DNA from: an uncultured Actinomycetota bacterium
Lineage (GTDB): Bacteria > Actinomycetota > Actinomycetes > Mycobacteriales > Pseudonocardiaceae
NCBI GenBank assembly: GCA_963712995.1
Contig: CAVQKH010000006.1
Span: 16,454 to 80,453 of the forward strand
Reading direction: 5' to 3'
Length of the DNA stretch: 64,000 nucleotides
A program made the translations under genes and the position numbers. This document shows positions 9,098 through 28,227 of the stretch, piece after piece. The first letter of the stretch is position 1. Each line of letters starts with the position of its first letter. The notes below the pieces were generated by a model that saw nothing but the letters and a program-made list of their open reading frames with translations, was not told the origin of the DNA and ran no database searches.

Positions 9098-9225
9098 GGA
9101 TGCCTGCTCGTCCCTTCTCCTACCGGCGCCAGAGGCGGGCTACCCCGGGCGGCGGGAATCCTCTGGTGTGTGGACCATTGTTCCCCGCCGCACCGACAGT
9201 TCCGACCAGCGGGCCGTCGGAGTAG

Positions 9226-9699
9226 GTGTCGCCATCGAGCAGGTGTCCATCGAGGGGGTGTAACGCCGTGACCGCCGGCCAACTTCCCGCGGGTCGTTAC
9301 GGGCGGCGCCCGCCTTCCGCCCGCCGTCGGTGGGCGGTGCCGGCAGGGCTCATCCTCGCCACCCTCATCGGGCTGGCAGTGGCGGTGATCGGCTACCGCA
9401 ACCTCGGCACCACGCCGATCCAGGGTTCGGCGCTCAGCTTCACCCTTCTGCCGGGCAATGCCGTGCACCTGCGGCTGAGTGTGATCCGGGACGACCCCTC
9501 GCAGGCGGCCGTGTGTATCGTCCGTGCCCGTTCCCTGGATGGGGAGGAAACCGGCCGAAAAGAAGTCTACGTGCCCCCCGCGGCGGGTCCGATCACGCTG
9601 TCCACAGTGGTGCACACCTCCCGGCCACCAATCACCGCTGAGGTCTTCGGATGCTCGTTCCAGGTGCCCGACTACCTAGCTCCGGTCCCGAACCACTGA
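9226..9699 (+). CDS. DUF4307 membrane protein (Rv1081c-like); start uncertain (GTG 9268 possible)
   Basis: Arg-rich N-terminus, one TM helix ([16 protein letters not shown]) and a beta-rich C-terminus; conserved position between mca and greA. Confidence 0.75.
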
Positions 9700-9910
9700 C
9701 TCGACCAAGAAGTTAATAGCCCCGCTGAACAGGCACGATCCCGATCCATTCACCCGTAAGGCTGAGGTTGGCCCTGACACCTCGTGTTACCGTGGAGGGC
9801 GCGCACGGCCCCGGGGCAGGGCCGTGTTTTTCCGTTCCGGCCGTCGGCTACCACGTCGGCGGCTCGGTTCGGTCCGCACCGCGGTAGCGGACGTCGGATC
9901 TGAAGGAGGA

Positions 9911-10408
9911 ATGATGACCGTGAGCGAGACCCAGGTGACCTGGCTGACCCAGGAATCCTACGACCGGCTCAAGCAGGAACTCGACGAGCTGGTGGCGAAC
10001 CGCCCAGTCATTGCCGCGAAGATCAACGACGCCCGTGAGGAAGGAGACCTCAAGGAGAACGGTGGCTACCACGCCGCCCGCGAGGAGCAGGCCCAGCTCG
10101 AGGCCCGGATCCGCCAGCTACAGGAGCTGCTCCGCGTCGCCAAGGTCGGCGGTGTCCCCACCCAGTCCGGGATCGCCGCACCCGGAATGGTCATCACGGT
10201 ACGCTACCAGGGAGAGGACGAGACCGAGACCTTCCTGCTCGGATCACTGGAGGAAGTTGCACACGGTGATCTGGAGGTCTACTCGCCGAACTCACCACTG
10301 GGTAAAGCGATCATCGGTGCCCACGAGGGCGAGGACCGCCACTACGAGCTGCCCAACGGCGGTCTGATGACCGTCGCCGTCGTCAAGGCCGAGCCTTTTA
10401 GAGGCTGA
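9911..10408 (+). CDS. greA: transcription elongation factor GreA
   Basis: [19 protein letters not shown]...[15 protein letters not shown]; GAAGGAGGA Shine-Dalgarno just upstream of ATG 9911. Confidence 0.95.
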
Positions 10409-10413
10409 ATTCT

Positions 10414-11619
10414 TCACTGCGACACCTGGTAGCCGGCCGCGTTCAGGTCGGCGATCAGTGCTGTGCAATGTTGCGGGCCGCGAGTCTCCAGACTCAACGC
10501 GACGACCACATCGCCGATTGCCAGACGACCGGCGGTGCGGGAGTGGGCCACATCGACCACGTTGGCTCCCGAGGCCCCCACTCGCGCCAGCAACGCGGCA
10601 AGTGCACCGGGCCGATCAGGCACGGTCACCTTCAGCGCCACGAACCGCCCGGCCGCCCTCAGGCCGTGCCGGATGAGGTGCATCAGCAGCAGCGGGTCGA
10701 CGTTGCCACCCGAGAGCACCGCACAGACCGGTCCCGGGAAGCGCTCGCCTGCCGCCAGCAACGCCGCGACCGCAGCCGCACCAGCCGGCTCGACCAGCAG
10801 CTTGGCCCGCTCCAGACACAACAGCAGCGCCTGGGACAGCGCCTCCTCCCCGACGGTGAGCACCTCATCGACCAATGCGGACACATGCGCGAAGCTCACC
10901 GGACCCACCTCGGAGACGGCGATCCCGTCGGCCATCGTGTACCTCGCTGGCAGCCGAACCGGTGCGCCGGCGGCCAGCGACGCAGGCCAGACCGCTGCGT
11001 GCTCGGCCTGCACCCCGATCACCCTCACCTCAGGTTTGACACCCTTGACCGCGGCGGCGATCCCACCGACAAGCCCACCACCACCGGTGGGCACCAGGAC
11101 GGTCGCCACGTCGGGCAGCTGCTCGAGCATCTCCAGACCCACCGTGCCCTGACCGGCCAGCACGTCGGGGTGGTCGAACGGGTGGATGAACACCGCCCCG
11201 GTCTCCTGCGCGAAGACGCGCGCGGCGGCCAGCGAGTCCTCGACGACGTCGCCGACGAGATGCACCTGTGCACCGTAGCCGCGCGTGGCGGCGATCTTGG
11301 GCAGCGCCGCGGTCACCGGCATGTAGACCGTTGCGGCGGTGCCCAACATCGCGGCCGCCAGCGCCACTCCCTGCCCATGGTTTCCGGCGCTGGCCGCCAC
11401 CACCCCACGGGCCCGCTGCGCCGCGGACAGGGCATGGATCCGCACATACGCGCCCCGAATCTTGAACGAACCCGTAAGCTGCAGGTTCTCGCATTTGAGG
11501 TGGACCGGGACCGCGCAGTGCTGGGCGAGCACCTCGCAGTACCGCACCGGGGTGCGCCTGATGACGCCATGCAGGGTCTCCCGGGCGAGTCTGATCTTCT
11601 CGATGCCGACCAGCTCCAT
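10414..11619 (-). CDS. ilvA: threonine ammonia-lyase (short form with one ACT-like domain)
   Basis: PLP lysine motif GSFKIRGAY, SAGNHGQGVA, C-terminal regulatory domain; 401 aa. Confidence 0.9.
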   Translation of the reverse strand: MELVGIEKIRLARETLHGVIRRTPVRYCEVLAQHCAVPVHLKCENLQLTGSFKIRGAYVRIHALSAAQRARGVVAASAGNHGQGVALAAAMLGTAATVYMPVTAALPKIAATRGYGAQVHLVGDVVEDSLAAARVFAQETGAVFIHPFDHPDVLAGQGTVGLEMLEQLPDVATVLVPTGGGGLVGGIAAAVKGVKPEVRVIGVQAEHAAVWPASLAAGAPVRLPARYTMADGIAVSEVGPVSFAHVSALVDEVLTVGEEALSQALLLCLERAKLLVEPAGAAAVAALLAAGERFPGPVCAVLSGGNVDPLLLMHLIRHGLRAAGRFVALKVTVPDRPGALAALLARVGASGANVVDVAHSRTAGRLAIGDVVVALSLETRGPQHCTALIADLNAAGYQVSQ

Positions 11620-11715
11620 AGTCGATGATCCTGCCAGCCGGCGAGCGCACGCCGGAAAACACCGCGCAGGATAACACCAGGGTAAGGTCGCCGATGAGCG
11701 TTTCGAGGAGGTGGA

Positions 11716-11949
11716 ATGGGTCGCCGCTGGGTACCGATCGTGGTCACCGCCGGGGTAGCCGCGTTGCTCGCGGGTGCCGCCGTCTTCACGGCTAACAGTG
11801 CGGGCTGCGCCGACCCGGGCAGCTATGTACGGGTACCAGGTGGTGTGCAGCTCGTCGGCGGATGCCTCAACAGCGCCGATCTCCCGGTCGCCCCCCCACC
11901 AGCCCCCGCCAAACCAGCCTCCCCACCCAAACCCCCCACCGGCGCCTAA
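11716..11949 (+). CDS. small proline-rich putative lipoprotein
   Basis: Signal peptide ending in a lipobox-like SAGC; Pro-rich tail PPPAPAKPASPPKPP. Confidence 0.45.
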   Translation: MGRRWVPIVVTAGVAALLAGAAVFTANSAGCADPGSYVRVPGGVQLVGGCLNSADLPVAPPPAPAKPASPPKPPTGA

Positions 11950-12007
11950 CCTCCACCGTCCCGCCCCTGGGCAAGGAAGACATATCGGGGTTGAGAGCAG
12001 CTGTTCG

Positions 12008-13144
12008 CTACGCGAGCGCGGTGCGCAGGTCCTCGATCAGGTCTTCGGCATCCTCGATGCCCACAGACAGGCGAAGGAGGTCGGCCGGTACCTCCAACTG
12101 GGTGCCCGTGGTGGAGGCGTGCGTCATGCGTCCGGGGTGCTCGATGAGGGACTCCACCCCACCCAGCGACTCAGCGAGGGTGAACAGCCGGGTTCGGGCA
12201 CACACCGCCAGCGCCGCCGCTGCGCCCCCACGCACGGTGAACGAGACCATGCCCCCGAAGCGGCGCATCTGCTTGGCGGCCACCTCATGGCCGGGATGGG
12301 TGTCCAAACCCGGGTAGTGCACACCGGTGATCGTCGGGTGCGCCTGCAGCGCCGCGACAACCCGCTCGGCGTTATCGCAGTGTCGCTCCATGCGCACTGC
12401 CAGGGTCTTGATCCCGCGTAAAGTCAGCCAGGCGTCGAAGGGCCCCGGCACCGCACCGGCGCCGTTCTGCAGGAACGCCACCTGCTCATCCAGCCCGGCG
12501 TCGTCGGTGATCAACGCGCCGCCAACCACGTCGGAGTGTCCACCGAGATACTTGGTGGTCGAGTGCAGCACCACATCGGCACCCAGTCCCAGGGGCGTCT
12601 GCAGGTAGGGGGTGGCGAAGGTGTTGTCCACCACCAGGCGGGCACCGGCTCCGTGGGCGATGCCCGCCAGCGCCGCGATATCCGCGATGGTGAGCAGCGG
12701 ATTGGTCGGCGTCTCGCACCACACCAACCGGGTCGTCGGACGCATCGCGTCCAACACCACATCGGGATCGGACTGTGAGACAGCGGTGTAGTCGATCCCC
12801 CAGGGTCCGAACACCTTGTCGATCAGGCGGAAAGTGCCCCCGTAGGCGTCGTCAGGGATGACGATGTGATCACCTGGCCGGCAGGTCGCTCGCAACAGGA
12901 CGTCGGTGGCCGCCATCCCGGAGGCGAAGGCCCGCCCGTGACGACCTCCCTCCAGCGCGGCCAGGCAGGTCTCCAACGCGGTGCGGGTGGGGTTGCCGGT
13001 GCGGGCGTACTCATATCCCTCGCGCAGGCCGCCAACACCGTCCTGAACGAAGGTGGAGGTGGCGTGGATCGGCACGATCACCGACCCGGTGTGGGGATCC
13101 GGATCCTGACCGGCGTGGATCGCGCGGGTGGCGAAACCTGTCAC
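12008..13144 (-). CDS. metB: cystathionine gamma-synthase/gamma-lyase (PLP-dependent)
   Basis: FATRAIHAG...HSTTKYLGGHSDV (PLP Lys) typical Cys/Met metabolism enzyme; Rv1079-like synteny. Confidence 0.9.
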   Translation of the reverse strand: MTGFATRAIHAGQDPDPHTGSVIVPIHATSTFVQDGVGGLREGYEYARTGNPTRTALETCLAALEGGRHGRAFASGMAATDVLLRATCRPGDHIVIPDDAYGGTFRLIDKVFGPWGIDYTAVSQSDPDVVLDAMRPTTRLVWCETPTNPLLTIADIAALAGIAHGAGARLVVDNTFATPYLQTPLGLGADVVLHSTTKYLGGHSDVVGGALITDDAGLDEQVAFLQNGAGAVPGPFDAWLTLRGIKTLAVRMERHCDNAERVVAALQAHPTITGVHYPGLDTHPGHEVAAKQMRRFGGMVSFTVRGGAAAALAVCARTRLFTLAESLGGVESLIEHPGRMTHASTTGTQLEVPADLLRLSVGIEDAEDLIEDLRTALA

Positions 13145-13189
13145 GTCGACAGCCTACGGCGATCCGCTGCCGGCGCGATCACCGCCACT

Positions 13190-13278
13190 GCGATCTTTGG
13201 TCGGCCCGCCGACGCGATCTTTGGTCGGCCCGCCGACGCGATCTTTGGTCGGCCCGCCGACGCGATCTTTGGTCGGCG
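13190..13278. repeat. 24-bp tandem repeat, about 3.7 copies, in the cbs-metB intergenic region
   Basis: GCGATCTTTGGTCGGCCCGCCGAC repeated head to tail at 13190, 13214, 13238 and partially at 13262; each unit contains the palindrome GTCGGC-CC-GCCGAC. Confidence 0.95.
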
Positions 13279-13302
13279 CTAGCGGATCCACCCGGCCTGT
13301 CG

Positions 13303-14673
13303 TTACCGCCCAGCCAGGAACCCCAGCACGTCCTGGCGAGTGACCACCCCCGCAGGCTTGCCGTCGATCAAGACCATGGCGCCGTCGGCGTTGGCCAAGG
13401 ACCGCATGAGCGAGCCGACTGACTCACCCCCGCCGATCGTCGGCAGCGGCGCCGCCATGTGCGCCTCGATGCAGTCTGCAAGTTGCGCGTCGCCGGCGAA
13501 CAAGGCCTCCAGCAGGACGCGCTCGTTGACCGCGCCGATCACCTCGGCCGCCATGACCGGTGGCTCAGCCGAGACCACCGGCAACTGCGAGACCCCGAAC
13601 TCGCGCAGAATCATCACGGCGTCGGCGACCGTCTCATTGGGATGGGTATGCACCAACTTGGGCAAGGTGCCGTCCTTGCCGACCAGCACGTCGGCGACCG
13701 TTGCTCCCGAGGAGTCCGGAGGCAGAAAGCCATAGGTGGCCATCCACGCGTCGTTGAAGACCTTGCCCAGATAACCGCGCCCGCCGTCGGGCAGCAACAC
13801 GACGATCACCGATTCGGGTCCGGCCTGGCCGGCCAGCCGCAGCGCGCCCACCACCGCCATCCCGCACGACCCCCCCAGCAGCAACCCCTCCTCACGGGCC
13901 AGCCGCCGGGTCATCGCGAAGGAATCGGTATCCGAGACCGGAATGATGTCGTCGCAGACATTGCGGTCATAGGTGCGGGGCCAGAAATCCTCCCCGACAC
14001 CCTCTACCAGGTAGGGCCGGCCGCTGCCGCCCGAATACACCGAACCCTCCGGATCGACGCCGATGATCTGCACCCGGCCCTCGCTCACCTCTTTGAGGTA
14101 GCGCCCAGTCCCGGAGATCGTCCCCCCGGTGCCGATACCGGCGACGAAGTGCGTGATCCGCCCCTGGGTCTGCGCCCACAACTCGGGACCGGTGCTGTGG
14201 TAGTGGCTGGCAGGGTTCTCCTTGTTGGAGTACTGATCGGGTTTCCACGCTCCGTCGATCTCCGCAGCGAGCCGGTCGGACACCGAGTAGTACGAGTCGG
14301 GATGGTCGACCGCGACGGCGGTGGGGCACACCACGACCTCCGCACCGTAGGCCTTGAGCACGTCTCGCTTGTCTTCGCCGACCTTGTCGGGGCAGACGAA
14401 CAGGCACCGGTAACCCTTGCGTTGGGCGATCATCGCCAGTCCGATACCGGTGTTTCCCGACGTCGGCTCGACGATCGTGCCGCCCGGCCGCAGCTGACCG
14501 GATCGCTCCGCCGCTTCCACCATCCGCACCGCGATCCGATCCTTCACGCTGCCGCCGGGATTGAGATACTCCACCTTCGCCAGGATCAGCGGCGCGAGGT
14601 CTTTGGCTACTGCGTTCAGTCGCACCAGCGGGGTGTTGCCGACCAGATCGATGATGTGCTCGGCGTAGTGCAC
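13303..14673 (-). CDS. cbs: cystathionine beta-synthase (PLP domain plus tandem CBS domains)
   Basis: GNTPLVRL...NPGGSVKDR PLP motif and C-terminal CBS pair; start set at GTG 14673 (VHYAEHIIDL); the 610-aa ORF upstream extension is not coding-like. Confidence 0.9.
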   Translation of the reverse strand: MHYAEHIIDLVGNTPLVRLNAVAKDLAPLILAKVEYLNPGGSVKDRIAVRMVEAAERSGQLRPGGTIVEPTSGNTGIGLAMIAQRKGYRCLFVCPDKVGEDKRDVLKAYGAEVVVCPTAVAVDHPDSYYSVSDRLAAEIDGAWKPDQYSNKENPASHYHSTGPELWAQTQGRITHFVAGIGTGGTISGTGRYLKEVSEGRVQIIGVDPEGSVYSGGSGRPYLVEGVGEDFWPRTYDRNVCDDIIPVSDTDSFAMTRRLAREEGLLLGGSCGMAVVGALRLAGQAGPESVIVVLLPDGGRGYLGKVFNDAWMATYGFLPPDSSGATVADVLVGKDGTLPKLVHTHPNETVADAVMILREFGVSQLPVVSAEPPVMAAEVIGAVNERVLLEALFAGDAQLADCIEAHMAAPLPTIGGGESVGSLMRSLANADGAMVLIDGKPAGVVTRQDVLGFLAGR

Positions 14674-14824
14674 TGGGTCTCCTGGCGGGATGAGGGCTGA
14701 CTGTGCTTGTACACACAGCACGCGACTGAGCGTCAGACGTATTTCAGAGCTTCTGGCGTGTATCAGAGTATTAGGGGTATTAGGGGCACCCCGCACCGCG
14801 CGGCGTCGAGGAGGTCTTTCAGCG

Positions 14825-15703
14825 ATGCAACATCCGTTGAGAAGAACCGCCGTCGTGGTCGGCGCCACCGGTGCGACGGTTGGCGCCGCGTACGGGGTAC
14901 TCACCCAGCAGGGACGGCGGGCGCGCCGAAACATCAAGATCCCGGGCTGGGCCCCGTTCCGCGCGGACGGGGTGTACCTGCCCGACGGGACCGGCCCATC
15001 AACGGTTGCGTGCACTGAGCCGTCCTCGGGGGAGATGGTCCGCATCATGATGCTGGGTGATTCCCTGGCGGCCGGCCTCGGCGTGGATGGGCCCGAGCAG
15101 TTACCCGGGACCGTGCTGGCTCGCGGACTGGCCAAGGACGCCGATCGACCGGTTCAGCTGGACACCCTGGGTATCTGCGGCTGCACGAGCCGCCGGCTGG
15201 GCGGGCAGGTGGACACCGCTCTGATCGATCCTCCGCACCTGGCCATCATCCTGATCGGCGCCAATGACCTGACCCGGCGGGTTCCGCCGTGGGAGTCGGC
15301 CAGACTGCTCGGCGACGCGGTGTCCAGGTTGCGAGCCGCCGGCAGCGCTGTGATCGTCGGCACCTGCCCGGATCTCGGCACGATCCGGCCGATCCCGCAA
15401 CCACTGCGCACCATCGCGCACACCTCCAGCTTGACCCTGGCCCGTCTGCAGCGCGATGCGGTATGCCGGGCCGGCGGGCTGCCGGTGCCCCTGGCCCAGC
15501 TACTCGCCCACGACTTCCTCACCCAGCCCGACACCATGTTCAGCCGGGACCATTACCACCCTTCCTCGGCCGGCTACCGCGCCGCCTGCGCGGTACTGCT
15601 CCCGGCACTGTGCTCAGCCCTGCGGGATACGTGCTCTTCAAGTACCACCAACCGGAGCACCACGCATGCGGGCCCGGTCACCCATTGGGGACCGGGCCCG
15701 TGA
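14825..15703 (+). CDS. SGNH/GDSL-family hydrolase
   Basis: Block I MMLGDSLAAGLG, block III IGANDL, block V DHYHPS; start at ATG 14825. Confidence 0.85.
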   Translation: MQHPLRRTAVVVGATGATVGAAYGVLTQQGRRARRNIKIPGWAPFRADGVYLPDGTGPSTVACTEPSSGEMVRIMMLGDSLAAGLGVDGPEQLPGTVLARGLAKDADRPVQLDTLGICGCTSRRLGGQVDTALIDPPHLAIILIGANDLTRRVPPWESARLLGDAVSRLRAAGSAVIVGTCPDLGTIRPIPQPLRTIAHTSSLTLARLQRDAVCRAGGLPVPLAQLLAHDFLTQPDTMFSRDHYHPSSAGYRAACAVLLPALCSALRDTCSSSTTNRSTTHAGPVTHWGPGP

Positions 15704-17404: not shown

Positions 17405-17838
17405 TGCTCTTCAGTCAGGTACGTAAACGCGATGTGGTCAACACTGCCACCGCGACCCGGGTTGCCAGAGTGGACGGCTTGGTCGTACTGCCCGGGCCTG
17501 CCAGGGTGGCGCTGCTGCGATTGGGCAAGGTCAGCGGTGCCGGCACCCTGGTTTCCTGGGGTGACCTGCAAGGCTTCGGGCCCGACGCCGTGACGGTGGC
17601 GACCGACGCCGTGATCCGGCCGGCCCGCGACGATCTGGAACGGCGGGCCGAGAACAACGACCTGGAGATCCTGGGGAAGCGGGTCCTCACTGAGCGAGGA
17701 ATGGAACTCGGCACGGTCACCGACGTGGACTTCGACCCGGAGACGGGTGTGGTCACCTCACTGGTCACCAAGACCGAGACCATCCCCGGACAACGGTTGA
17801 TCGGTCTGGGCAACTACGCGGTCGTCGTGTCGGATTAG
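17404..17838 (+). CDS. PRC-barrel domain protein
   Basis: ILGKRVLTERGMELGTVTDVDFDPETG PRC-like segment; start overlaps the previous stop (TGATG). Confidence 0.65.
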   Translation: MLFSQVRKRDVVNTATATRVARVDGLVVLPGPARVALLRLGKVSGAGTLVSWGDLQGFGPDAVTVATDAVIRPARDDLERRAENNDLEILGKRVLTERGMELGTVTDVDFDPETGVVTSLVTKTETIPGQRLIGLGNYAVVVSD

Positions 17839-18794
17839 CGCGCTGGTGGGAGGTTCTGGACGTGCTGGAACCCGAATCTCCCCTTGATGCAGAGGTGGCC
17901 GTGGGTGATGCTGTGATCCGACGGTGAGGTCACATTGACGATCTGCCCGTGCTGCACGTGCAATTCGAGGTTGCATCCCACGCCGCAGAACGAGCAGACC
18001 GTGGTGGTGACGGTCTCGGCGGCCGGGTCCCAGTGCCCCGATTCCCGCAGTTCGTGTTCACGGACCGACTTGAGTGCGCCCGTGGGACATACGCCGATGC
18101 AGTTCCCGCAGTAGACGCAGGCCGAAGCAGGCAATTCGACGTCGTACTCGGTGGCGATGCGCGCGTCGAAACCACGGCCTGCCGCGGCGATGGCGAAGCT
18201 GAATTGGGCGTCGGTGCCGCATGCTTTGACGCATTTGTAGCACATGATGCATCGGGAGTAGTCGCGCACGTAGAGATCGTTGTCGATCTTGATGGGTTGC
18301 GCGACGGTCTCCGCGGTGGAGCCATCCGGGGGATGGTGATGCCCGGCGTGGCGGCGGTCCCGCTCACCGGCTGCCGCCGGCGCGCCCGGCGGGCCGTAGC
18401 GCCCCGGGTCCACACCGTAGGCGGCTATCCACCGGTGCACATCAGCGTCGGCCTGTGACAGGTCGACCGATGAGGCGAGCAGTTCCAGCACCATTCGCCG
18501 GCTGTGCCGCACCCGCTCGGTGTTCGTGCGCACCTGCATGCCCTCCTCCACCTTGCGGGCACAGGACGGGACGAGCACTCGGGAACCTTCGACTTCCACG
18601 ACGCACACCCGGCACGCGTTGACCGGAGTGAGGTTGGGGGCCCAGCACAGCGTCGGGGTGTCAGCTTGATCGGTATCGCCGAGACAGTGCAGTGCTTCGA
18701 GGATCGTCGAGCCCTCGGGGACGCGGATCTCGCGGCCATCCAGGGTCATCGTCACCAGACGCCGGATCGCCCCGAGCATCACCGGGATACTCAT
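17835..18794 (-). CDS. formate dehydrogenase Fe-S module (2Fe-2S + 2x 4Fe-4S + MopB-type 4Fe-4S domain), equivalent to the N-terminal third of FdsA/NuoG
   Basis: Start ATG 18794 overlaps the upstream stop (ATGA). Motifs: TLCWAPNLTPVNACRVCVVEV (2Fe-2S), CIMCYKCVKAC and CVYCGNCIGVCP (4Fe-4S), CSFCGVGCNL...HLCIKGRFGF (molybdopterin-enzyme 4Fe-4S domain). Confidence 0.85.
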   Translation of the reverse strand: MSIPVMLGAIRRLVTMTLDGREIRVPEGSTILEALHCLGDTDQADTPTLCWAPNLTPVNACRVCVVEVEGSRVLVPSCARKVEEGMQVRTNTERVRHSRRMVLELLASSVDLSQADADVHRWIAAYGVDPGRYGPPGAPAAAGERDRRHAGHHHPPDGSTAETVAQPIKIDNDLYVRDYSRCIMCYKCVKACGTDAQFSFAIAAAGRGFDARIATEYDVELPASACVYCGNCIGVCPTGALKSVREHELRESGHWDPAAETVTTTVCSFCGVGCNLELHVQHGQIVNVTSPSDHSITHGHLCIKGRFGFQHVQNLPPAR

Positions 18795-20653
18795 GGGCGC
18801 ACCTTCGTGTTGGTCGAGCCGTTGCGAGACGGGTCCGGTGGCGCGGCCAGCAGGCCGAGGGCGATCGCGGACTGCACGGCGGCCGGCGCGGTGTGCCCCA
18901 GCCCGCAGATCGAGGCGTCCTGCATGACCCGGGCCAGGTCCGCCAGCAGAGCCAGCTCGGTCTCCCGGGACCCACGCGGCGCACCGCGGGTCAGCCGGGC
19001 CAGCGCCTCCTCCTGCCGGACTGTCCCGACCCGGCACGGGACGCACTGCCCGCAGGACTCGTCCCGGAAAAACGCCGCGATCCGGCGCAGCATCGCGGTG
19101 AGATCGGCCGTGGTATCGAGGACCAGGATCACGCCCGAACCCAGCGTCGCCCCGATCTCGCGGGCGCCTTCCAGGGTGAGCGGGGTGTCGAGCTGGTGGG
19201 GCAGGACAAACCCGCCGGCAGCGCCGCCGAGCAGGATCGCGCGCAGCTCACCGGTCACGCCGCCGGCCAGCGCGAGCAGCTCACGTAGCGTCGTCCCGAA
19301 CGGCACCTCGTACACCCCGGGCACCGCGATCGCGCCCGAGAGGCAGAACAGTTTGGTGCCGGTGCTGCGGCCGCCACCGACGCCGGAGAAACCGGGACCG
19401 CCGAGTTCCAGAACCTCGAGGACGTTGTAGAGCGTCTCGACGTTGTTGATCAATGTGGGTTTGCCGAACAGGCCCGAGACGCTGGGGAAAGGGGGTTTGT
19501 TGCGTGGTTCGCCGCGGTAGCCTTCGATCGAGTTCAGCAGTGCGGTCTCCTCACCGCAGATGTAGGCGCCCGCGCCCCGGCGTAGCTCGATGTCGAACGC
19601 GAAGCCCTCCCCCATCACGTCCACGCCGAGGTATCCCCGCCGGCGGGCGGCCTCGATCGCGACCTGCAGCCGCCGCGTGGCCAGCGGGTACTCGCCGCGG
19701 ATGTAGAGGTAGCCGAGCTCGCAGCCGGTCGCGTAGCCCGCGATCGTCATCGCCTCGATCAGCCCGAACGGGTCGAGTTCCATGAGGACCCGGTCCTTGA
19801 ACGTGCCGGGCTCGGACTCGTCGGCATTGCAGACCAGGTAGTGCGGTCGCTGCGGCGCGGTGGCGACGCCGTCCCACTTCACCCCGGTGGGGAACGCCGC
19901 CCCGCCGCGGCCGGTCAGCCCGGAGTCACGCACCTCGGTGATCACCCGGCTCGGGCCGAGCTCGATCGCCCGGCGCAGCGCGGCGTACCCGCCGTGCGCG
20001 CGGTAGTCGTCCAGGCTGGTCGGGTCGACCACACCGACCCGGCGCAGCAGCCGAGGCCCAGCGTGCCCGGTTTGCGGGACACTCACCCGAGCATCAGCGA
20101 ACGCCTGGTCCGCCGTCACGGCATCGATGCCGCCCCGCGCCGCGGCGAGCACCTGCAGCGGGGTGGCCGGTGCCTGGCTGAAATCGGGTTCCCCGGCGAG
20201 CTGGTGCAGCACGGCGGGGGCGCGCTCGCACAAGCCCAGGCACGGGCTGCGCACCCAGCAGGCGTCCTGTGGACCCAACTGCGCGGTCAAGGCGGAAGCG
20301 ATGGCCTCTCCCCCGGCCGGGCCGCACACGATGTCGTCGCAGACGTGGATCACCCGTGGCGCGCGCGGCTCGGTGGCGAACATCGCGTAGAACGTGGCGA
20401 CGCCGTAGATCTCGGCGGGCGGGACCGATAGCCGCCGCGCGATGTGGTTCAGGGCGCCCGCGCTGATCCAGCCCACCGCGTCGGACACCGCGTGCAACGC
20501 CGGCAGCAGCAGGTGCCGGCGACTGCGGGCGCCGTGCCCGGCGTCGGTGAAGTGCGCCTCGGGCACCGGGGCACCAAGCTCTCCGGACAGGGCGGCGTCC
20601 ACCGCGTCCCGCTCGGCCTCGGTGGGCACGGCGGCGGAGAGCCGCAGATCCAT
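18791..20653 (-). CDS. NAD-reducing diaphorase subunit, NuoE-like fused to NuoF-like (FdsG/FdsB-type)
   Basis: N-terminal thioredoxin-like 2Fe-2S region (VCDDIVC); GRGGAAFPTGVKW FMN site; YLVCNADESEPGTFKDR; ESCGQCVPCRVG 4Fe-4S. Confidence 0.9.
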   Translation of the reverse strand: MDLRLSAAVPTEAERDAVDAALSGELGAPVPEAHFTDAGHGARSRRHLLLPALHAVSDAVGWISAGALNHIARRLSVPPAEIYGVATFYAMFATEPRAPRVIHVCDDIVCGPAGGEAIASALTAQLGPQDACWVRSPCLGLCERAPAVLHQLAGEPDFSQAPATPLQVLAAARGGIDAVTADQAFADARVSVPQTGHAGPRLLRRVGVVDPTSLDDYRAHGGYAALRRAIELGPSRVITEVRDSGLTGRGGAAFPTGVKWDGVATAPQRPHYLVCNADESEPGTFKDRVLMELDPFGLIEAMTIAGYATGCELGYLYIRGEYPLATRRLQVAIEAARRRGYLGVDVMGEGFAFDIELRRGAGAYICGEETALLNSIEGYRGEPRNKPPFPSVSGLFGKPTLINNVETLYNVLEVLELGGPGFSGVGGGRSTGTKLFCLSGAIAVPGVYEVPFGTTLRELLALAGGVTGELRAILLGGAAGGFVLPHQLDTPLTLEGAREIGATLGSGVILVLDTTADLTAMLRRIAAFFRDESCGQCVPCRVGTVRQEEALARLTRGAPRGSRETELALLADLARVMQDASICGLGHTAPAAVQSAIALGLLAAPPDPSRNGSTNTKVRP

Positions 20654-20662
20654 GGACGCTCC

Positions 20663-22591
20663 TTACCCGCCGGCCGGCGCCGGCGTCACCTTCTCGATCC
20701 GGACTGCGGTGGCCTTGAACTCCGAGGTGCCCGATTTCGGGTCCCACGCGTCGTTGGTGATCAGGTTGGTGTCCACCTGCTCGGAGAAGTGTGGGGTGAA
20801 CGAGGCCAGCCCGGGCCGCAGTGACGGGTCGAAGGCCACCGGTGCCTCCACCGACCCGCGCCGCGAGCTCACCCGCACCCGCTCCCCCTCGGCGATGCCC
20901 AGCTCCGCGGCATCGGTCGCGTCCATCCGCAGTGCCTCCCGGCGGCGCATCGGCGAGGCGTACCCACCGGTCTGCACGCCGGAGTTGTAGGCGTCCAGCA
21001 GCCGGACGGTGGTCAGCCGGATCGGGAACTCCTCGGTCAGCTCATCGACCGGTGGCACGTGTTCCACCGGCACGAACGGCGCCGCCGGCCCCCGCAGTTC
21101 CGGGTCGGTCTCCCACAGCCGGGCGTGCATCAGCGGGGTGCCCGGGTGATCCTCGGAGGGGCAGGGCCACTGCAACCCGCCCAGCGTGTCCAGCCGCGGG
21201 TAGGACATGCCGTGGTGCCAGTTCAGGGACAGCGCGCGCAGCTCGTCCCACACCTGCTCGGCGCTGGGTCGGCCCCAGTCGTGGCCCAGCCGATCGGCGA
21301 GCGCGCACAGGATGTGGGTGTCCGGCCAGGCCTGGCCGGGTGGCTCGATCGCCTTGCGCACCCGCTGCACCCGCCGCTCGCTGTTGGTGACGGTGCCCTC
21401 GTACTCACACCAGTCGGCGGCGGCGGGCAGCACGACATCGGCCAACTCGGCGGTCGCGGTGCGGAAGATGTCCTGCACGACCAGGATGTCCAGGCCGTTC
21501 AGCAGGCGACGCGCGTGCGCGGCGTTGGCTTCCGACTCGGCGGGGTTCTCCCCGATGCAGTACAGCGCGCGCAGCTCACCGCGGTCCATCGCCTCGAACA
21601 TCTGCGACAGGTGCATCCCGGGTTTCGGGGAGATCGTGGTGCCCCAAGCCTGCTCGTAACGTGCCCGCGCCTCGGTGTCGCCGAGGTCGTAGCCACCAGG
21701 CAGCTTCGCCGGAATGGCACCCATGTCCCCGCCGCCCTGCACGTTGTTCTGCCCGCGCAACGGGCACAGGCCCGAGCCGAAGCGCCCGACATGCCCGGTC
21801 AGCAACGCCAGATTGATCAACGCGAAGACGTAGTCGGCGGCGTTGTGATGCTCGGTGATCCCCAGTGTCCAGCACAGCTGCGCCCGGTCGGCGCGGGCGT
21901 AGGCGTGTGCCAGCTTCTTGATCAGCTCAGCGGGGACCTTGGTGATCTCCTCGGCCCGCTGCAAGGTGTAGGGCTCGACGGTGCGCCGGTAGTCCGCGAA
22001 ACCAGTGGTCGCCCGGTCGATGAACCTCCGGTTCTCCAACCCGGCCGCGATGATCTCCCGGCCGACGGCGTTGGCCAGCGCGATGTCGGTGCCGACGTCC
22101 AGGCCCAGCCAGCCATCGGCCCACTGGGCGGTACTGGTCCGCCGGGGGTCCACCGAGTACATCCGGGCACCGCGTCTGAGCCCCTGCAGCACGTGGTGGA
22201 AGAAGATCGGGTGCGTCTCGCGCGCGTTGGAACCCCACAGCACGATGAGGTCGGCTTGCTCCGCCTCGAGGTAACTACTCGTGCCGCCACCGGCACCGAA
22301 GACCGTCGTCAGACCGACGACGCTGGGAGCGTGTCAAGTACGGTTGCAGCTGTCGACGTTGTTGCTCCCCATCACCGCCCGGGTGAACTTCTGCGCCGTG
22401 TAGTTCATCTCGTTGGTGGCCTTCGAGCAGCTGAACATGCCGAAGGCGTCCCCGCGGTGGCGGGCGAAGCCGGCCGCGGCGCGGCCCAGCGCCTCGTCCC
22501 AGCTCGCCGGTTGCAGCCGCCCGGCGTCGCGGACCAGAGGCTCGGTCAGGCGCACGTGCCGGACTTTCCGCATGCCGTTGCGTTTTCCCAT
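20663..22591 (-). CDS. fdhA: formate dehydrogenase catalytic (Mo/W-bisPGD) subunit with in-frame UGA read as selenocysteine
   Basis: Two same-frame ORFs (22334..22591 and 20663..22243) joined through TGA 22334-22336; [18 protein letters not shown] and [16 protein letters not shown] match FdhF/FdsA-type enzymes. Confidence 0.85.
22304..22322 (-). promoter_or_regulatory. SECIS-like recoding hairpin
   Basis: mRNA C-GUCGUC-GGUCU-GACGAC-G starts 11 nt after the UGA; its loop and spacing resemble the E. coli fdhF SECIS as remembered. Confidence 0.6.
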
Positions 22592-22666
22592 CCCCCTACC
22601 TTCCTGTGCCAGACTGGATGCGGAATTGAGCGTAACCCTCTTGGGCGCGAACGGCGGTTAGATCAC

Positions 22667-23530
22667 ATGGGGCGGCTGACGGTGGGCCACCCCGTGCTGC
22701 GGCTCAGCTCGGAGCACTGGAGCCGGCAGCCCGACCGGCTCGCTGTCGAGGAACCACTGGAGCTGCGCGTTGGCCGCCGCGCGCTGGCGGTCACCATGCG
22801 CACCCCGGGTCACGACGTGGAACTCGTGCACGGGTTCCTGCTGACCGAGGGCGTGATCACCTCGGTGAGTGACGTCACCTCGGCGCGGTACTGCGACTCG
22901 CTGGACGGCAACGGACGCAACACCTACAACGTGCTCGACGTGGCGCTCGCTCCCGGAGTGGCCGCGCCGGCCGCCGGTGTGGACCGCAACTTCTACACGA
23001 CCTCCTCCTGCGGTGTGTGCGGTAAGGCCTCGCTCGACGCCGTGCGCCTGCACACCCGGTTCTCCCCGGCGCAGGACCCCGCGCGCGTGTCGTCGCAAAC
23101 ACTGTTCGCGATGCCGGATGCGTTGCGCGCCGGGCAACAACTGTTCGAGTCCACCGGCGGCCTGCACGCGGCCGGGCTGTTCACCGTCGATGGCCACCTG
23201 CTCGTCGTGCGCGAGGACGTGGGCCGGCACAACGCCGTGGACAAGGCGCTCGGCTGGGCGTTGCTCAACGGTCGCATCCCGGCTACCGGCTGCGTGCTCA
23301 TGGTGTCCGGGCGGGCCTCGTTCGAGCTCGTCCAGAAGGCGGTGATGGCGGGCGTCCCGGTGCTCGCGGCAGTGTCCGCTCCCTCGTCGCTGGCCGTCGA
23401 GCTGGCAGCCGAGTCCGGTCTGACGCTGGTCGGGTTCCTGCGCGGCACCACCATGAATGTCTACGCCGGCGCCAACCGGATCATGACAACCTGCACGGCG
23501 GATAGCGTGGGGACGGAACAGCATCCCTAA
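22667..23530 (+). CDS. fdhD: formate dehydrogenase accessory sulfurtransferase FdhD
   Basis: ATG 22667; [42 protein letters not shown] motifs; only the last 287 aa of the 823-aa ORF 21059..23530 are real. Confidence 0.9.
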
Positions 23531-23755
23531 TGTCACACTTAATGATGTCATTTTCCCCTGAGGATAGACAGCAGGATCGCCCCTTTCACCTGGGTGTGAG
23601 TCGAGTGCGTCGGTGATGTTTTTTCACCATCGCCCCTGCCAAGCCAGCTCCTCATGGGCATGAGCGAGCCAGCTGTGCACCGAAGGTCACCCCACGTGGC
23701 GGTGGCGCTACCCTCACTAGCTGCACCCCGCACCCGCACCGCTCTGTGAGGCCTG

Positions 23756-24592
23756 ATGTCCAGCACCAATCCGCCGCTCTCCGACGATGTCAAACCAGTC
23801 ATTGACATCACCAAGCCGAGCATCGCCAGGGCCTATGACGCGGCCCTGAACGGCAAGGACAACTACGAGGTTGACCGCGAGTTCCTCCAGCGGATCCTGG
23901 AGGTGGCACCGGAAGCGAAACAGATCGCGTGGGACAACAGGATGTTCCTGATCCGCCTAGTCCGATTCCTCGCTTACGGGGCTGGAATCACGCAGTTCCT
24001 CGACTGCGGCTCAGGCCTACCGACGGCGGAGAATACCCACCAAGTCGCCCAGCGCATCCGACCGGACGCACGCGTGATCTACGTCGACAACGACCCTGTC
24101 GTACTCTCCTACGGCCGCGCACTCCTCCAGGAAAACGACCAAACCCACCTCATCGACGCCGACATCTTCGAACCACGCCAGCTCTTCGACAACGAAGATA
24201 TCCGCAAGTATCTCGATTTCTCCGAGCCGATCGCGTTGTTGCAGAACGCGACGCTGCACCACTACAACGGCACACGCGGTCCGGCCGAGATCATGCACGA
24301 GTACATCGACGCGTTGCCGTCGGGCTCCTACGTGGGGATCAGCCATTTCTACGATCCCGAGACCAGCGAATACAGCACCCTCGCCCGGAAAATCGAACAA
24401 GTCTTCCTGCGCAGCCCGATCGGCTGCGGGTGGTTCCGAACCCGGGCCGAGATCGAAAGCATGTTCTCCGGCCTCGAACTGGTGGAACCCGGACTGACCC
24501 TCTGTGCTGAGTGGTGGCCCGACGGACCTCGCACCACACCACTACTACCTGTCCAGCATTGCATCATCGGTGGCGTCGGCCGCAAACCATAA
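23756..24592 (+). CDS. SAM-dependent methyltransferase, Methyltransf_19/DUF574-type
   Basis: ARAYDAALNGKDNYEVDRE...NRMFLIRLVRFLA...QFLDCGSGLPT...VIYVDNDPVVLSYGRALL matches the remembered actinomycete family. Confidence 0.8.
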   Translation: MSSTNPPLSDDVKPVIDITKPSIARAYDAALNGKDNYEVDREFLQRILEVAPEAKQIAWDNRMFLIRLVRFLAYGAGITQFLDCGSGLPTAENTHQVAQRIRPDARVIYVDNDPVVLSYGRALLQENDQTHLIDADIFEPRQLFDNEDIRKYLDFSEPIALLQNATLHHYNGTRGPAEIMHEYIDALPSGSYVGISHFYDPETSEYSTLARKIEQVFLRSPIGCGWFRTRAEIESMFSGLELVEPGLTLCAEWWPDGPRTTPLLPVQHCIIGGVGRKP

Positions 24593-24636: not shown

Positions 24637-27600
24637 TCACAGTCCGGGAAGCATGAGGTTGCGTCGTTCCGCCGCACTGAGTTCCCGGCAGGCACGTAGG
24701 CGGGCTTTAGCGATGATGGCCTCGACGCTGACTGTCGCATCCCAGACTCGACTGGTTCCATCACGTGACGCAGAAGCAATTCGTTTCCCATCTGGAGACC
24801 ACGCCACCCCTTCGACCCCTGCGGTGTGAGCACCGACGACGATGATCTCAGCGCCGGACTCGGCGTTCCAGATTCGGACCGTCCGGTCGCGTGACCCGGT
24901 GGCCAGCCGCCGTCCGTCCTGTGACCAGGCGACTCCTTGAATCTCATCGTCGTGGCCCAGTAGCACTGCGAGTTGGCTGCCGTTGTGCGCGTCCCAGACC
25001 CGGGCCGTCCGATCGCGTGACGCGGTGACCAGCCGCTGCCCTTCTGGTGACCACTCCACCCGCTGAATCCAATCGTCGTGTCCACGGAACACTGCGAGCT
25101 GACTTCCGCTGCGGACATCCCAGATCCGGGCCGTCCGGTCGTTGGACGCGGTGGCCAGCCGGCGCCCATCCGGCGCCCACGCCACACCCCAGATCTCGTC
25201 GTCGTGGCCGAGTAGCACGGCAAGCTGGCTGCCGCTGTGCGCGTCCCAGACCCGGGCCGTCCGATCGCGTGACACAGTAGCCAGCTGGCGCCCGTCCGGT
25301 GACCACGCAATTCCCCGAAACCCATCGTCGTGGCCAGACAACACGCAGAGCGGGCGGCCGCTGGGAACCTCCCAGATCCGGGCAGTGCGGTCGGACCCGC
25401 TGGCCAGCCGTCGTCCGTCCGGGGACCACGCCACTCTTAGGTTCGCGGGTCGCACCATCGCGAGCTCGTCGCAGCTCTGGGCGTCCCAGATCCGGGCCGT
25501 CTGATCATCTGAAGCGGTGGCCAGCAGCTGTCCATCCGGTGACCAAGCCACGTCCCGAACCGATTGGGTATGACCGTGCAGCAGAGCGAGCTCGCTGTCA
25601 GCGCGTAGGTCCCAGATCCGCGCTGTCCGATCGTCCGACGCGGTGGCCAGCCGCTGCCCATCCGGTGACCACTCCACCCATCGGACCCAACCGTGGTGGC
25701 CGTAAAGCACCTCACGAGCGACGCCAACTACGGCGTCCCAGATCCGGACTGTCCGGTCGATCGACGCGGTGGCCAGCCGCTGCCCATCCGGTGACCACGC
25801 CACTCCCCGAACCTCTGACTCGTGGCCGGACAGCACGATCAGCTCACTGCCGGCTTTGGCATCCCAGATCCGGGCCGTCCGGTCGTACGAGGCGGTGGCT
25901 AGCCGCTGCCCATCAGGTGACCACGCCACCGCCTGAATCCAGCCATGGTGGCCCCGCAACAGCACCGATTCGTTGCCATCGTCGGTATCCCAGATCCGAA
26001 CCGTCTGATCGTGTGATCCAGTGGCGAGGTGCTGCCCGTCCGGTGACCAGGCCACCCCCCGAACCTCGTCTTCGTGGCCACGCAATACCGCGAGTTCGGC
26101 GTAGCTCTGAGCGTCCCAGATCCGGGCCGTTCGGTCGCGTGACCCGGTGGCAAGGTGCTGACCATCCGGTGACCAGGCCACCCGTCGAAGTCCGTTTTGG
26201 TGGCCGCACAACACTGCGAGCTCAGCTCCGGTGCCGGCGTCCCAGATCCGGACGGTCCGGTCGATCGAGGCAGTGGCCAGCCGCTGCCCGTCCGGTGACC
26301 AGGCCACCCCCTGAACCCAATCATCATGGCCACGCAGCACAGCGACCTCGGCTCCGGTGGGATCCCAAATCCGCGCCGTCTGATCGCGTGACCCGGTGGC
26401 CAACCGCTGCCCATCCGGCGACCACGCCACACAGAAAACGTGGTCATCGTGGCCACGGAGAATAATACGGACCTTGGAGGCAGCAAGGGAAACCGTCAGG
26501 GCCCGGAGAGCAAGAGCGGTGGGGGCGCATTCTGCAAAGGCGGCGAGGGCGAGCAGGAGGCTGTAGTCAGGGTCATGATCGACGGCGCCGAGTGCTTGCC
26601 GGGCGATGGTCTCGGACAGGCGCTGCATCGTGGCACGATCAGCCCGGTTGGAGAACGCCAGGAACTCCGCGACCAGAGGGAGGCTGGCCACCAGCTCGCC
26701 GTCTGAGGTGGTCCATCGTTGGGCAGCGCGGAGGCGCTCATCACGCAGCAGGTAGGCGTCCTGGCGGCCGGAATTCTCCCAATCCCTGGCCCACCGTTCC
26801 ACGTCCGCTCGCCAGCGAAGCTGATCGACGCCCGCCTCGATGGCTTGCCGCAGCGGCGCCCAGGAACGGAACAACGCCTCGTGAGCCACATCGAGGATGG
26901 CGTCGGCGCCGTCTCCATTGCTGGTCAGCAGGCGCGCAGCGATGAATGCCTCGGCGACCCGCCACTGGGCGTCTGTGAGCGCACTGCGCGGAACCCTTCG
27001 GCGAGTGGGTTCGTTCTCGCCGATTGCGACAAATTTCAGCAGGGTCGACAGCACCGGACCAGCCGGATCAGGACCCCCTAACTCGGCGGTGACCTTGTCA
27101 GCCTGGCGGTTGAGCACCCCGGCGACCCCGCCGATGCGTTGGTAAGCATCGGCAGTCAATACCCGCGCCGGGCCAGCCGCAAGGCAGAGTTCCTGCAGCG
27201 CGTACGCCAGCAACGGCAGGGCGTCGCCACCTCCTGCGTCGGCGGCTATTCGATGCGGCAGGGTCGCTGGATCGAAGGTCAGTCCTGCTTGTCGGGCTGG
27301 CTGCTCAATCACGTCGACTAGTGCGGCGCGACTCAGCGTGCCCACCATGACCGGGTCGTGCAGCAGCCGGGCGTGGTTGGTGCCCAGGAAAGTGGTCAGG
27401 AACTCCGATCGCATGATCACGACGATCCACAGCTTGGGGTCATCCACAAGTGCGACGCTCAGCCCGCTCAGAAACTGATCACGCTCGTCCTGTCCCGACA
27501 GAGTGATCAGCTCTTCGGCCTGGTCAACAATGAGCAGCACCGGGGCATTCGGACGGCCATGCGCGTTGCGCAGCTCGTCGACGACAGACGCCAGGCCGGT

Positions 27601-28227
27601 GGCGTCGGCGCTTAGAGCAGCCCGCACGTCATTGATGGTCCGGCCCGGGCAGGCCATTGCCAGACTCTGGGCGAGGCTGCGGTGTGGATGGTCCCCCGGC
27701 ACGACCGGCGGCAGGACGATCCAGCCGCTGCGCCGGTGCCGCAACCGCGGCACGAGCCCGGCTTGGATCAGCGACGACTTTCCAGCGCCTGATGGACCGA
27801 CCACCGCGACGAGCCGATGAGCTTGTGCTGCGACCACGGGATGAAGACGTTCCACGAGCTCGGTCACCTCGGCGTCCCGGCCGAAGAACACCGCCGAGTC
27901 GTATTCTGTGAATGCCTCAAGCCCAGGGAACGGTGGCCGATCCAAATCCCAGATGGAGCGAGCAGGTAACACGAGACGCTCCTCAGTCACGTGCTGCCAG
28001 ACCATCAACCCGATGATCGTCAGCACGATGACGCCGGCCAGCGGCAGCGACCCTCGACGAAGGAGCTCCAAACCCCACGGGAAGGCTCCCGTGGCATGGG
28101 CCAGATTGCCGGTGGCAACGCCGAGCAAGGTCACAAACAGGAACAGCAGGATCTGAACAAGCAGCAGAGAACGCCTGCGGGACATACCCCAGCGTCGCAT
28201 GCCACACTCGATCAAAGATGCCTTCAA
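24637..28227 (-). CDS. membrane-anchored STAND (nSTAND-type) P-loop NTPase with 14 WD40 repeats
   Basis: Two N-terminal TM helices, PFPGLEAFTEYDSAVFFGRDAEV...VVGPSGAGKSSL Walker A, helical middle domain, then 14 repeats of the GH..V..VAWSPDG..LAT.S.D.T.RIWD type; 1196 aa; exact start uncertain. Confidence 0.9.
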   Translation of the reverse strand: MKASLIECGMRRWGMSRRRSLLLVQILLFLFVTLLGVATGNLAHATGAFPWGLELLRRGSLPLAGVIVLTIIGLMVWQHVTEERLVLPARSIWDLDRPPFPGLEAFTEYDSAVFFGRDAEVTELVERLHPVVAAQAHRLVAVVGPSGAGKSSLIQAGLVPRLRHRRSGWIVLPPVVPGDHPHRSLAQSLAMACPGRTINDVRAALSADATGLASVVDELRNAHGRPNAPVLLIVDQAEELITLSGQDERDQFLSGLSVALVDDPKLWIVVIMRSEFLTTFLGTNHARLLHDPVMVGTLSRAALVDVIEQPARQAGLTFDPATLPHRIAADAGGGDALPLLAYALQELCLAAGPARVLTADAYQRIGGVAGVLNRQADKVTAELGGPDPAGPVLSTLLKFVAIGENEPTRRRVPRSALTDAQWRVAEAFIAARLLTSNGDGADAILDVAHEALFRSWAPLRQAIEAGVDQLRWRADVERWARDWENSGRQDAYLLRDERLRAAQRWTTSDGELVASLPLVAEFLAFSNRADRATMQRLSETIARQALGAVDHDPDYSLLLALAAFAECAPTALALRALTVSLAASKVRIILRGHDDHVFCVAWSPDGQRLATGSRDQTARIWDPTGAEVAVLRGHDDWVQGVAWSPDGQRLATASIDRTVRIWDAGTGAELAVLCGHQNGLRRVAWSPDGQHLATGSRDRTARIWDAQSYAELAVLRGHEDEVRGVAWSPDGQHLATGSHDQTVRIWDTDDGNESVLLRGHHGWIQAVAWSPDGQRLATASYDRTARIWDAKAGSELIVLSGHESEVRGVAWSPDGQRLATASIDRTVRIWDAVVGVAREVLYGHHGWVRWVEWSPDGQRLATASDDRTARIWDLRADSELALLHGHTQSVRDVAWSPDGQLLATASDDQTARIWDAQSCDELAMVRPANLRVAWSPDGRRLASGSDRTARIWEVPSGRPLCVLSGHDDGFRGIAWSPDGRQLATVSRDRTARVWDAHSGSQLAVLLGHDDEIWGVAWAPDGRRLATASNDRTARIWDVRSGSQLAVFRGHDDWIQRVEWSPEGQRLVTASRDRTARVWDAHNGSQLAVLLGHDDEIQGVAWSQDGRRLATGSRDRTVRIWNAESGAEIIVVGAHTAGVEGVAWSPDGKRIASASRDGTSRVWDATVSVEAIIAKARLRACRELSAAERRNLMLPGL
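24730..26480 (-). repeat. intragenic tandem array of about 126-nt WD40-coding repeats (approximate bounds)
   Basis: Near-identical peptide repeats (AWSPDGQRLATAS.DRTARIWDA) and matching DNA repeats that create many alternative-frame ORFs in the track. Confidence 0.85.

Follow-up and report, generated by a model that had tools for sequence, protein, structure and literature searches.

Does the TGA codon that interrupts a formate dehydrogenase (FDH) gene in an uncultured actinobacterium end the protein, or is it read as selenocysteine (Sec)? The question is raised by a stretch of 64,000 nucleotides (nt), hereafter the window, which spans positions 16,454 to 80,453 of contig CAVQKH010000006.1 (GenBank assembly GCA_963712995.1); all coordinates below are counted from its first letter. 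Two minus-strand open reading frames (ORFs), 22591..22334 (85 amino acids [aa]) and 22243..20663 (526 aa), lie in a common frame, and the TGA at 22336..22334 is the sole stop separating them, within the peptide NNVDSCNRT-[TGA]-HAPSVVGL. Read through, they form fdhA (20663..22591, minus strand; 642 codons including the in-frame TGA), whose product would be the catalytic subunit of a formate dehydrogenase, carrying a molybdenum or tungsten bis-pyranopterin guanine dinucleotide (Mo/W-bis-PGD) cofactor and missing the N-terminal [4Fe-4S] domain. A hairpin resembling a selenocysteine insertion sequence (SECIS) follows the TGA. From the comparisons set out below, we consider it very likely that this UGA would be decoded as Sec in a functional enzyme of the split type known as FDH3.

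The identity of the encoded protein shows what the codon stands opposite. FdhA contains PF00384 (211 bits) and PF01568 (82 bits), and its best NCBIfam model was TIGR01591 (Fdh-alpha), with 609.8 bits over profile positions 52-672, which does not reach the equivalog cut-off of 666.25; the next model, NasC, scored 360 bits. The nearest matches in the PDB were FdhF-type formate dehydrogenases (E 8e-142 to 1e-121), aligned from chain residue ~60 onward. When FdhA was aligned with Escherichia coli FDH-H (1aa6), its segment NNVDSCNRT-[stop]-HAPSVVGL matched NNVDCCARV-X-HGPSVAGL and the stop faced X (Sec140); the F420-dependent FDH 9t1s likewise has X (Sec) opposite the TGA. A His codon directly follows the putative Sec codon (TGA CAC), and the Arg of the …LRGQNNVQG motif is kept in the alignment with FdhF-type chains; we take these two to be catalytic residues, equivalent to H141 and R333 of the E. 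coli enzyme. A preliminary description of this DNA, made from its letters alone, had proposed two same-frame ORFs parted only by a TGA at the catalytic Sec/Cys position and had compared the site with the E. coli FdhF segment NNVDCCARV-U-HGPSVAGL. The coordinates, frame and peptide were all reproduced in our analysis, the E. coli segment matches 1aa6, and the placement of the stop at the catalytic position is borne out by the residue opposite it.

Both sides of the TGA have the character of coding sequence. The GC content at third codon positions (GC3) is 0.91 and 0.92 on the two sides, reflecting the strong third-position bias of real genes in this DNA, and the reading frame contains no frameshifts and no further stops. 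This is also the only such in-frame TGA in the window, with at least 60 stop-free, coding-like codons on either side. A Shine-Dalgarno-like AGGAAGG lies 7 nt ahead of the ATG at 22591, and the N-terminal fragments found in relatives begin at the equivalent of 22573 or 22591; the residue in question would be Sec86 counted from the ATG at 22591, or Sec80 if the start is the ATG at 22573, and the product would comprise 642 aa, or 636 aa with the later start. The same layout could be taken to mean that the gene is genuinely split, with translation starting anew for the C-terminal part and the resulting protein joining the 85-aa peptide in an enzyme whose Sec position is empty. Two ORFs are indeed called here and in more than 100 related genomes, and the family has already tolerated one split, that between the iron-sulfur (Fe-S) module and the molybdenum cofactor (Moco) part. 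However, the first in-frame ATG, GTG or TTG past the TGA lies 31 codons downstream, beyond the invariant block, so a separately started C-terminal protein is implausible; the intervening residues are near-invariant while their third positions are free, homologues with a Cys codon are continuous, and such an assembly would lose the metal-ligand residue. Of the explanations weighed in this study, a two-part enzyme is the most improbable, and we attach almost no credence to it.

Comparison with relatives reveals how widely the codon is kept. Our scan of species-representative genomes returned 80 loci (L001-L080). The active-site codon was TGA in 48 of them, as in the window, and TGC or TGT in 14, so that the contrast between Cys codons and TGA for which the preliminary description had suggested looking among orthologues does exist; in addition, the full-length homologue P0120 from Actinoallomurus has Cys at the site. 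The 116 closest proteins listed shared 73-93% identity with FdhA, and the named ones came mostly from Pseudonocardia or a 'Pseudonocardiales bacterium'. All 116 were 497-567 aa long and covered only 76-85% of the query, and the inspected members of this truncated set start 11 to ~45 codons past the stop position. Separate N-terminal small ORFs (79-97 aa), each ending in …SCNRT, were found in at least 15 relatives. Because gene callers treat the Sec codon as an ordinary stop, the database entries for this gene and these relatives are truncated proteins or fragments, and the truncation implies a TGA in over 100 proteins of Pseudonocardiales. On either side of the stop, residues vary little or not at all, and four-fold third positions are near saturation, at 1.5-1.9 bits; because the residues are conserved while the third positions vary, both halves are translated in this frame.

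Two further observations concern the database records of these relatives. Entries are titled, for example, 'hypothetical protein, partial' or 'YjgC-like oxidoreductase', a systematic misannotation of a selenoprotein gene. One entry, P0117 from a 2183-bp ENA contig, is a full-length homologue of 645 aa with Arg at the Sec/Cys position and the Sec-type VVGLTT retained; CGA is one substitution from TGA, and the Arg could stem from a mistake in sequencing or from a mutation that recently inactivated the gene.

The hairpin behind the TGA occupies 22305..22321 on the minus strand, with a 5′ arm GUCGUC (22321..22316), a loop GGUCU (22315..22311) and a 3′ arm GACGAC (22310..22305). An extra C-G pair (22322/22304) is possible in the window, giving the full form C-GUCGUC-GGUCU-GACGAC-G at 22322..22304; this 7-bp form starts 11 nt after the UGA, and the 6-bp stem starts 12 nt after it. 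Taken alone, the hairpin is within chance: there are 72 perfect 7-bp hairpins with 4-6-nt loops in the window. Only the 23-nt minimal hairpin, at -11.2 kcal/mol (z = -2.6), is modestly unusual. Among all 6-bp hairpins of the window, however, the one behind the TGA alone has a loop that reads GGTCT. The significance of the element comes from its comparison with orthologues, for which we aligned the 60 nt from the TGA onward in all 49 TGA-type sequences (the 48 loci and the window).

RNAalifold returned exactly a 6-bp helix from this alignment, joining columns 16-21 with 27-32, and all six pairs were formed in 49/49 sequences. The pairs change together: 18-30 is CG in 44 sequences, GC in 4 and UA in 1; 20-28 is UG in 29, CG in 16 and UA in 4; and 17-31 is UA in 40 and UG in 9. 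The loop is GGUCU in 48 of the 49, and the hairpin of the window matches the conserved consensus perfectly. When seven pairs were counted, none of 500 shuffles attained the observed pairing or covariation score, and sliding the 3′ arm lowered pairing from 94.9% to 17-82%. The outer pair, C15-G33, is impossible in 17 of 48 distinct orthologous sequences, and this seventh pair (15-33) accordingly lies outside the conserved element. The preliminary description had drawn a SECIS-like 7-bp stem with a GGUC loop spaced as in E. coli fdhF. Six pairs of that stem stand and the seventh is unconserved; the spacing holds, since in both genes GGUC falls at nt 22-25 when counted from the U of the UGA, and the SECIS-like character is supported by covariation and by the confinement of the hairpin to TGA-type genes. 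The unconserved pair is one of the points that go beyond that description, together with the missing Fe-S domain, the fdhABC operon with its divergent fdhD, and a published enzyme from Actinomycetospora, all taken up below.

Synonymous sites in the TGA-type sequences are frozen in the hairpin only. Third-position entropy at codons +5 to +9 was 0.55, 0, 0.14, 0 and 0.55 bits, respectively, and in the flanks it was 1.88 at +2, 1.84 at +3, 1.52 at +10, 1.75 at +11 and 1.77 at +13. None of the 14 Cys-type genes forms all six pairs, and the loop differs in 13 of them; in the 12 Cys-type genes belonging to the group of at least 57% identity, third positions at the hairpin codons vary (0.65-1.55 bits). 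The Gly codon at +7 is GGT in 48 of the 49 Sec-type sequences and mostly GGC or GGG in the Cys-type genes, and the amino acids at the hairpin codons change from VVGLTT or VAGLAT in the Sec type to VAGLSA in the Cys type. This is the pattern that would be expected for an RNA element needed only where the codon is UGA.

The distribution of codon and hairpin also bears on the possibility that the TGA is a sequencing or assembly error for a true TGC or TGT, or that it is decoded as something other than Sec, through a reassigned code or near-cognate suppression. The assembly does contain a 1.25-kb homopolymer/AT-repeat artefact, and P0117 has an Arg that is one substitution away from TGA. Against this, 48 genomes that were assembled independently have TGA at this codon, always with the hairpin, and the genetic code is not reassigned, because 14 of the 26 confident ORFs in the window end in TGA, more than in any other stop. 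An error or a decoding other than Sec is thus highly improbable.

A near-identical 17-nt hairpin (GUCGYC-GGUCU-GRCGRC, with no bulged U) accompanies the split fdhA-fdhB-fdhC arrangement in genomes whose labels cover more than 10 phyla. It is conceivable, albeit rather doubtful, that the hairpin defines a distinct, horizontally mobile SECIS class accepted by diverse SelB proteins, the apparent breadth of which may be inflated by mis-binned contigs. If such a class were real, its strict loss in Cys lineages and the coupled changes in amino acids would offer a clean natural series for the conversion of Sec to Cys and the accompanying decay of the SECIS. Several loci (L005, L006, L008 and others) are high-GC orthologues of 67-68% identity titled as Spirochaetia, a Candidatus Micrarchaeaceae archaeon or Verrucomicrobiia. 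Such odd titles may mean either that the operon has been transferred very widely or that some contigs are mis-binned, and a breadth of 'many phyla' is to be read with caution.

Decoding of the UGA would require the Sec machinery, parts of which were found beside orthologues. ARAGORN detected a tRNA-Sec beside three TGA-type orthologues (L014, L022 and L036); in L014, from Geodermatophilaceae, it lies ~130 nt upstream of the gene and was recognized by Rfam RF01852 with 77.9 bits. Two of these three loci (L022 and L036) additionally hold a selD-selA-selB cluster by the orthologue. Following tblastn and then NCBIfam searches, selA in the two loci scored 430-480 bits (cut-off 268) and selD 335-396 bits (cut-off 125), while selB in L022 scored 283 bits (cut-off 242); selD is also near the orthologue in L015 and L054. 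In L036, a metagenome-assembled genome of Thermoleophilaceae, selB (6723-8187) is split over two frames, with tblastn pieces at 6723-7067 and 7201-7731 and an ORF at 7129-8187 that falls under the selB cut-off, probably because of a frameshift error of the long-read assembly. A 93-nt 'tRNA-Val (gac)' called by ARAGORN in L002 (7908-8000), ~2 kb upstream of the orthologue from Actinomycetospora lemnae, was considered as a mis-typed tRNA-Sec and rejected, as Rfam at gathering thresholds shows neither a tRNA nor a tRNA-Sec there; it is likely a false call. In a published survey, four of five Pseudonocardia genomes and Actinomycetospora chiangmaiensis were SelD+ SelA+ SelB+, one of the five Pseudonocardia genomes was without SelD, SelA and SelB, and the FDH alpha subunit was the most widespread bacterial selenoprotein, being present in 822 organisms (Peng et al., PMC5029168).

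Several results weigh against the decoding of this UGA as Sec. No tRNA-Sec was found within the 64-kb window by ARAGORN or Rfam, and no selA, selB or selD was found there. The stem is continuous where the E. coli SECIS has a bulged U, U17 of the window pairing with A31, and the bulged U is required in the E. coli element. In a 61-nt context, folding was no better than that of shuffles (z = 0.0), and the single-sequence energy was unremarkable. Rfam at gathering thresholds detected nothing near the site, and a permissive search gave only RF01989 (SECIS_3) at 22278-22339 on the minus strand, with 15 bits against a gathering threshold of 63 (E = 1.3); the hairpin is thus recognized by none of the curated RNA models. 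Because bacterial SECIS elements are short and lineage-specific, this miss weakens membership in that Rfam family rather than function. The 49 TGA-type sequences are related by descent, and some of their record titles suggest mis-binned contigs. Finally, the source looks like a metagenome assembly with at least one gross artefact, and its completeness and accuracy are uncertain. The artefact is a low-complexity stretch of ~1.25 kb (45646-46893) consisting of a poly-A run, ~290 T, ~500 nt of ATATT/ATAAT repeats and ~350 A; it interrupts an ORF starting at 45094 and looks like a product of assembly or scaffolding.

The absence of sel genes from the window also leaves room for a relic, in which the lineage would have lost the Sec machinery, the UGA would terminate translation and the enzyme would not be made. 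The surveyed Pseudonocardia genome without SelD, SelA and SelB (PMC5029168) provides a precedent, and mycobacterial FDH pseudogenes with a retained SECIS have been reported (PMC13449736). Decay is nevertheless hard to reconcile with the strong coding signature in both halves, with a hairpin identical to the conserved consensus, and with fdhB, fdhC and fdhD that are full length and collinear with those of relatives, in a locus free of frameshifts and extra stops. We regard a pseudogene as very unlikely, though less so than the two rivals discussed above, and return to a UGA that is very probably read as Sec.

The genes around fdhA suggest what the enzyme would do. fdhA heads a three-gene operon, fdhA-fdhB-fdhC, on the minus strand. 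fdhB (18791..20653, minus strand; 620 aa) encodes a fusion of a NuoE-like [2Fe-2S] part and a NuoF-like part for flavin mononucleotide (FMN), NAD(H) and a [4Fe-4S] cluster, that is, a diaphorase module (PF01257, PF01512, PF10589 and PF10531); it was matched by TIGR01959 (nuoF_fam) with 435.7 bits, in addition to NuoE and FDH-gamma models. fdhC (17835..18791, minus strand), whose ATG at 18791 overlaps the fdhB stop, encodes a 318-aa Fe-S module (PF13510, PF00037, PF22117 and a C-terminal PF04879), which contains a NuoG-N-terminal-like [2Fe-2S] domain, two [4Fe-4S] clusters and, at the C-terminus, the [4Fe-4S] domain of Mo enzymes. Divergent from fdhA, fdhD (22667..23530, plus strand; 287 aa) encodes the accessory sulfurtransferase, with PF02634 (FdhD-NarQ) at 242 bits and the motifs SCGVCGK and GRHNAVDK. 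The list of longest ORFs showed fdhD only indirectly, through an antisense shadow on the minus strand (22658-23551) and a plus-strand ORF that is extended too far (21059-23530). The former was considered as the missing N-terminal part of fdhA and was discarded, having no Pfam match.

The missing part of FdhA lies in FdhC. Positions 1-50 of TIGR01591 correspond to FdhC residues 264-313 (47.5 bits) and positions 52-672 to FdhA; because the match is divided in this way, the break in the classical alpha subunit falls exactly at the boundary of the Fe-S and Moco parts, whose coding order is permuted. Judged from this division of the profile, FdhC is the putative supplier of the usual N-terminus of the alpha subunit, and FdhA works like an FdhF/FdsA alpha subunit, but as a split variant. 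The order of Moco part, NuoEF fusion and Fe-S part is found in essentially all loci of at least 57% identity with a long enough contig, of both Sec and Cys type, and the split gene order is kept in ~50 loci with many phylum labels. Distant homologues, at 40-45% identity, have both parts in one protein, the Moco part following directly on the Fe-S part. The split has been noted for one organism (PMC7176365), and its breadth may not have been noted previously.

We propose that fdhA encodes the catalytic subunit, with a molybdenum- or tungsten-pterin cofactor, of a cytoplasmic and probably NAD+-linked FDH of the split 'FDH3' type. SelB carrying Sec-tRNA(Sec) would bind the GUCGUC-GGUCU-GACGAC hairpin and deliver Sec at the UGA in place of termination, yielding the 642-aa (or 636-aa) protein in which Sec, beside the conserved His, would ligate the metal. 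Electrons from formate could then enter FdhC at its C-terminal [4Fe-4S] cluster, travel along the remaining Fe-S clusters of that protein to the FMN in FdhB, the NuoE/F-like subunit, and presumably reach NAD+. The divergently encoded FdhD would sulfurate the cofactor. Read-through would thereby restore a complete, probably NAD+-linked, selenium-dependent FDH to this soil actinobacterium, for which a selenium requirement for formate oxidation is predicted, as shown for Actinomycetospora. The value of the finding is mainly for annotation, in that a gene truncated by automated pipelines can be re-annotated.

The remainder of the window offers some context. Near the FDH cluster, 5916-15135 (minus strand) holds genes of sulfur and thiol metabolism, encoding cystathionine beta-synthase (13303-15135), a member of the cystathionine gamma-synthase/lyase family (12008-13144), the mycothiol conjugate amidase Mca (8207-9097), which supports an actinobacterial origin, and a DUF255 thioredoxin-like protein (5916-7922), all on the minus strand. 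On the other side, an actinobacterial S-adenosylmethionine-dependent methyltransferase gene (23756-24592, plus strand; PF04672) adjoins one for a 1196-aa protein (24637-28227, minus strand) with an nSTAND1 NTPase domain followed by ~14 WD40 repeats. Between ~29000 and 55000, GC content falls from 0.67-0.72 to 0.55-0.65, with a coding signature fainter than that on either side; this stretch may represent mobile DNA or an island gained by horizontal transfer.

Among known systems, E. coli fdhF provides the reference for the Sec codon and its hairpin, its SECIS sequence having 100% identity matches in more than 5400 genomes ('fdhF … selenocysteine-containing'). The two hairpins cover the same Val-Val/Ala-Gly-Leu codons, codon for codon, but in E. 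coli the loop is the tetranucleotide GGUC and a U bulges out of the stem, whereas in the window the stem of 6-7 bp is uninterrupted and the loop, GGUCU, has 5 nt. FdhF also has its own N-terminal [4Fe-4S] domain, whereas FdhA of the window aligns from chain residue 60 only, and its partner is hydrogenase 3 rather than a diaphorase of the NuoE/F type. The module set is also that of the FdsABG-type NAD+ FDHs (Rhodobacter capsulatus 6tg9, Cupriavidus necator and Methylorubrum extorquens FDH1), which share with the window a NuoE-like part, a NuoF-like part, a NuoG-N-terminal-like Fe-S part, an Mo/W-bis-PGD part and an FdhD/FdsC-type sulfurtransferase; FdhA was aligned to residues 307-932 of 6tg9_A. 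The FdsABG-type enzymes differ in having one continuous alpha subunit of ~960 aa, whereas in the window it is split, in the order Moco part, diaphorase and Fe-S part, and Sec is not conserved in them (PMC7176365).

Within the actinobacteria, a 2026 survey found the Sec machinery and a Sec-containing FDH-O-type enzyme in ~40% of mycobacterial genomes (PMC13449736). That enzyme resembles the one described here as an actinobacterial selenoprotein FDH with a UGA, a SECIS immediately 3′ of it and routine annotation as two ORFs. It belongs, however, to another class, being ~1064 aa long, FdoG/FdnG-like and membrane-associated (PMC13449736); FdhA of the window matched FDH-O-class models weakly, with 177 bits for TIGR01553 (cut-off 814) and 167 bits for NF041513 (cut-off 1400).

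The best counterpart comes from Actinomycetospora chiangmaiensis, in which Rohwerder et al. (2020) described three Sec-containing FDHs, one of them the cytoplasmic FDH3, with Sec at U80 and a SECIS predicted by bSECISearch (PMC7176365). Formate accumulated in that organism without selenite and not with selenite, and proteomics detected FdhA3, FdhB3 and FdhC3 as well as SelA, SelB and SelD (PMC7176365). With a Sec trait that is usual in Pseudonocardia and a split architecture with Sec already published, the locus of the window represents no new biology. The organism of the window differs in being uncultured and Pseudonocardiales-like, known here from its genes, with a 93% identical 'Pseudonocardiales bacterium' protein as its best named match. 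In make-up, the two systems are alike: according to the published description, the FDH3 subunits of strain DSM 45062 measure 640, 614 and 316 aa against 642, 620 and 318 aa in the window, and in both FdhA is the metallopterin part only, FdhB is a NuoE/NuoF fusion and FdhC is a separate Fe-S protein (PMC7176365). Both organisms belong to the Pseudonocardia group and both proteins place Sec near residue 80, and the orthologue of Actinomycetospora lemnae, 82% identical to FdhA, has the TGA and the identical 17-nt hairpin.

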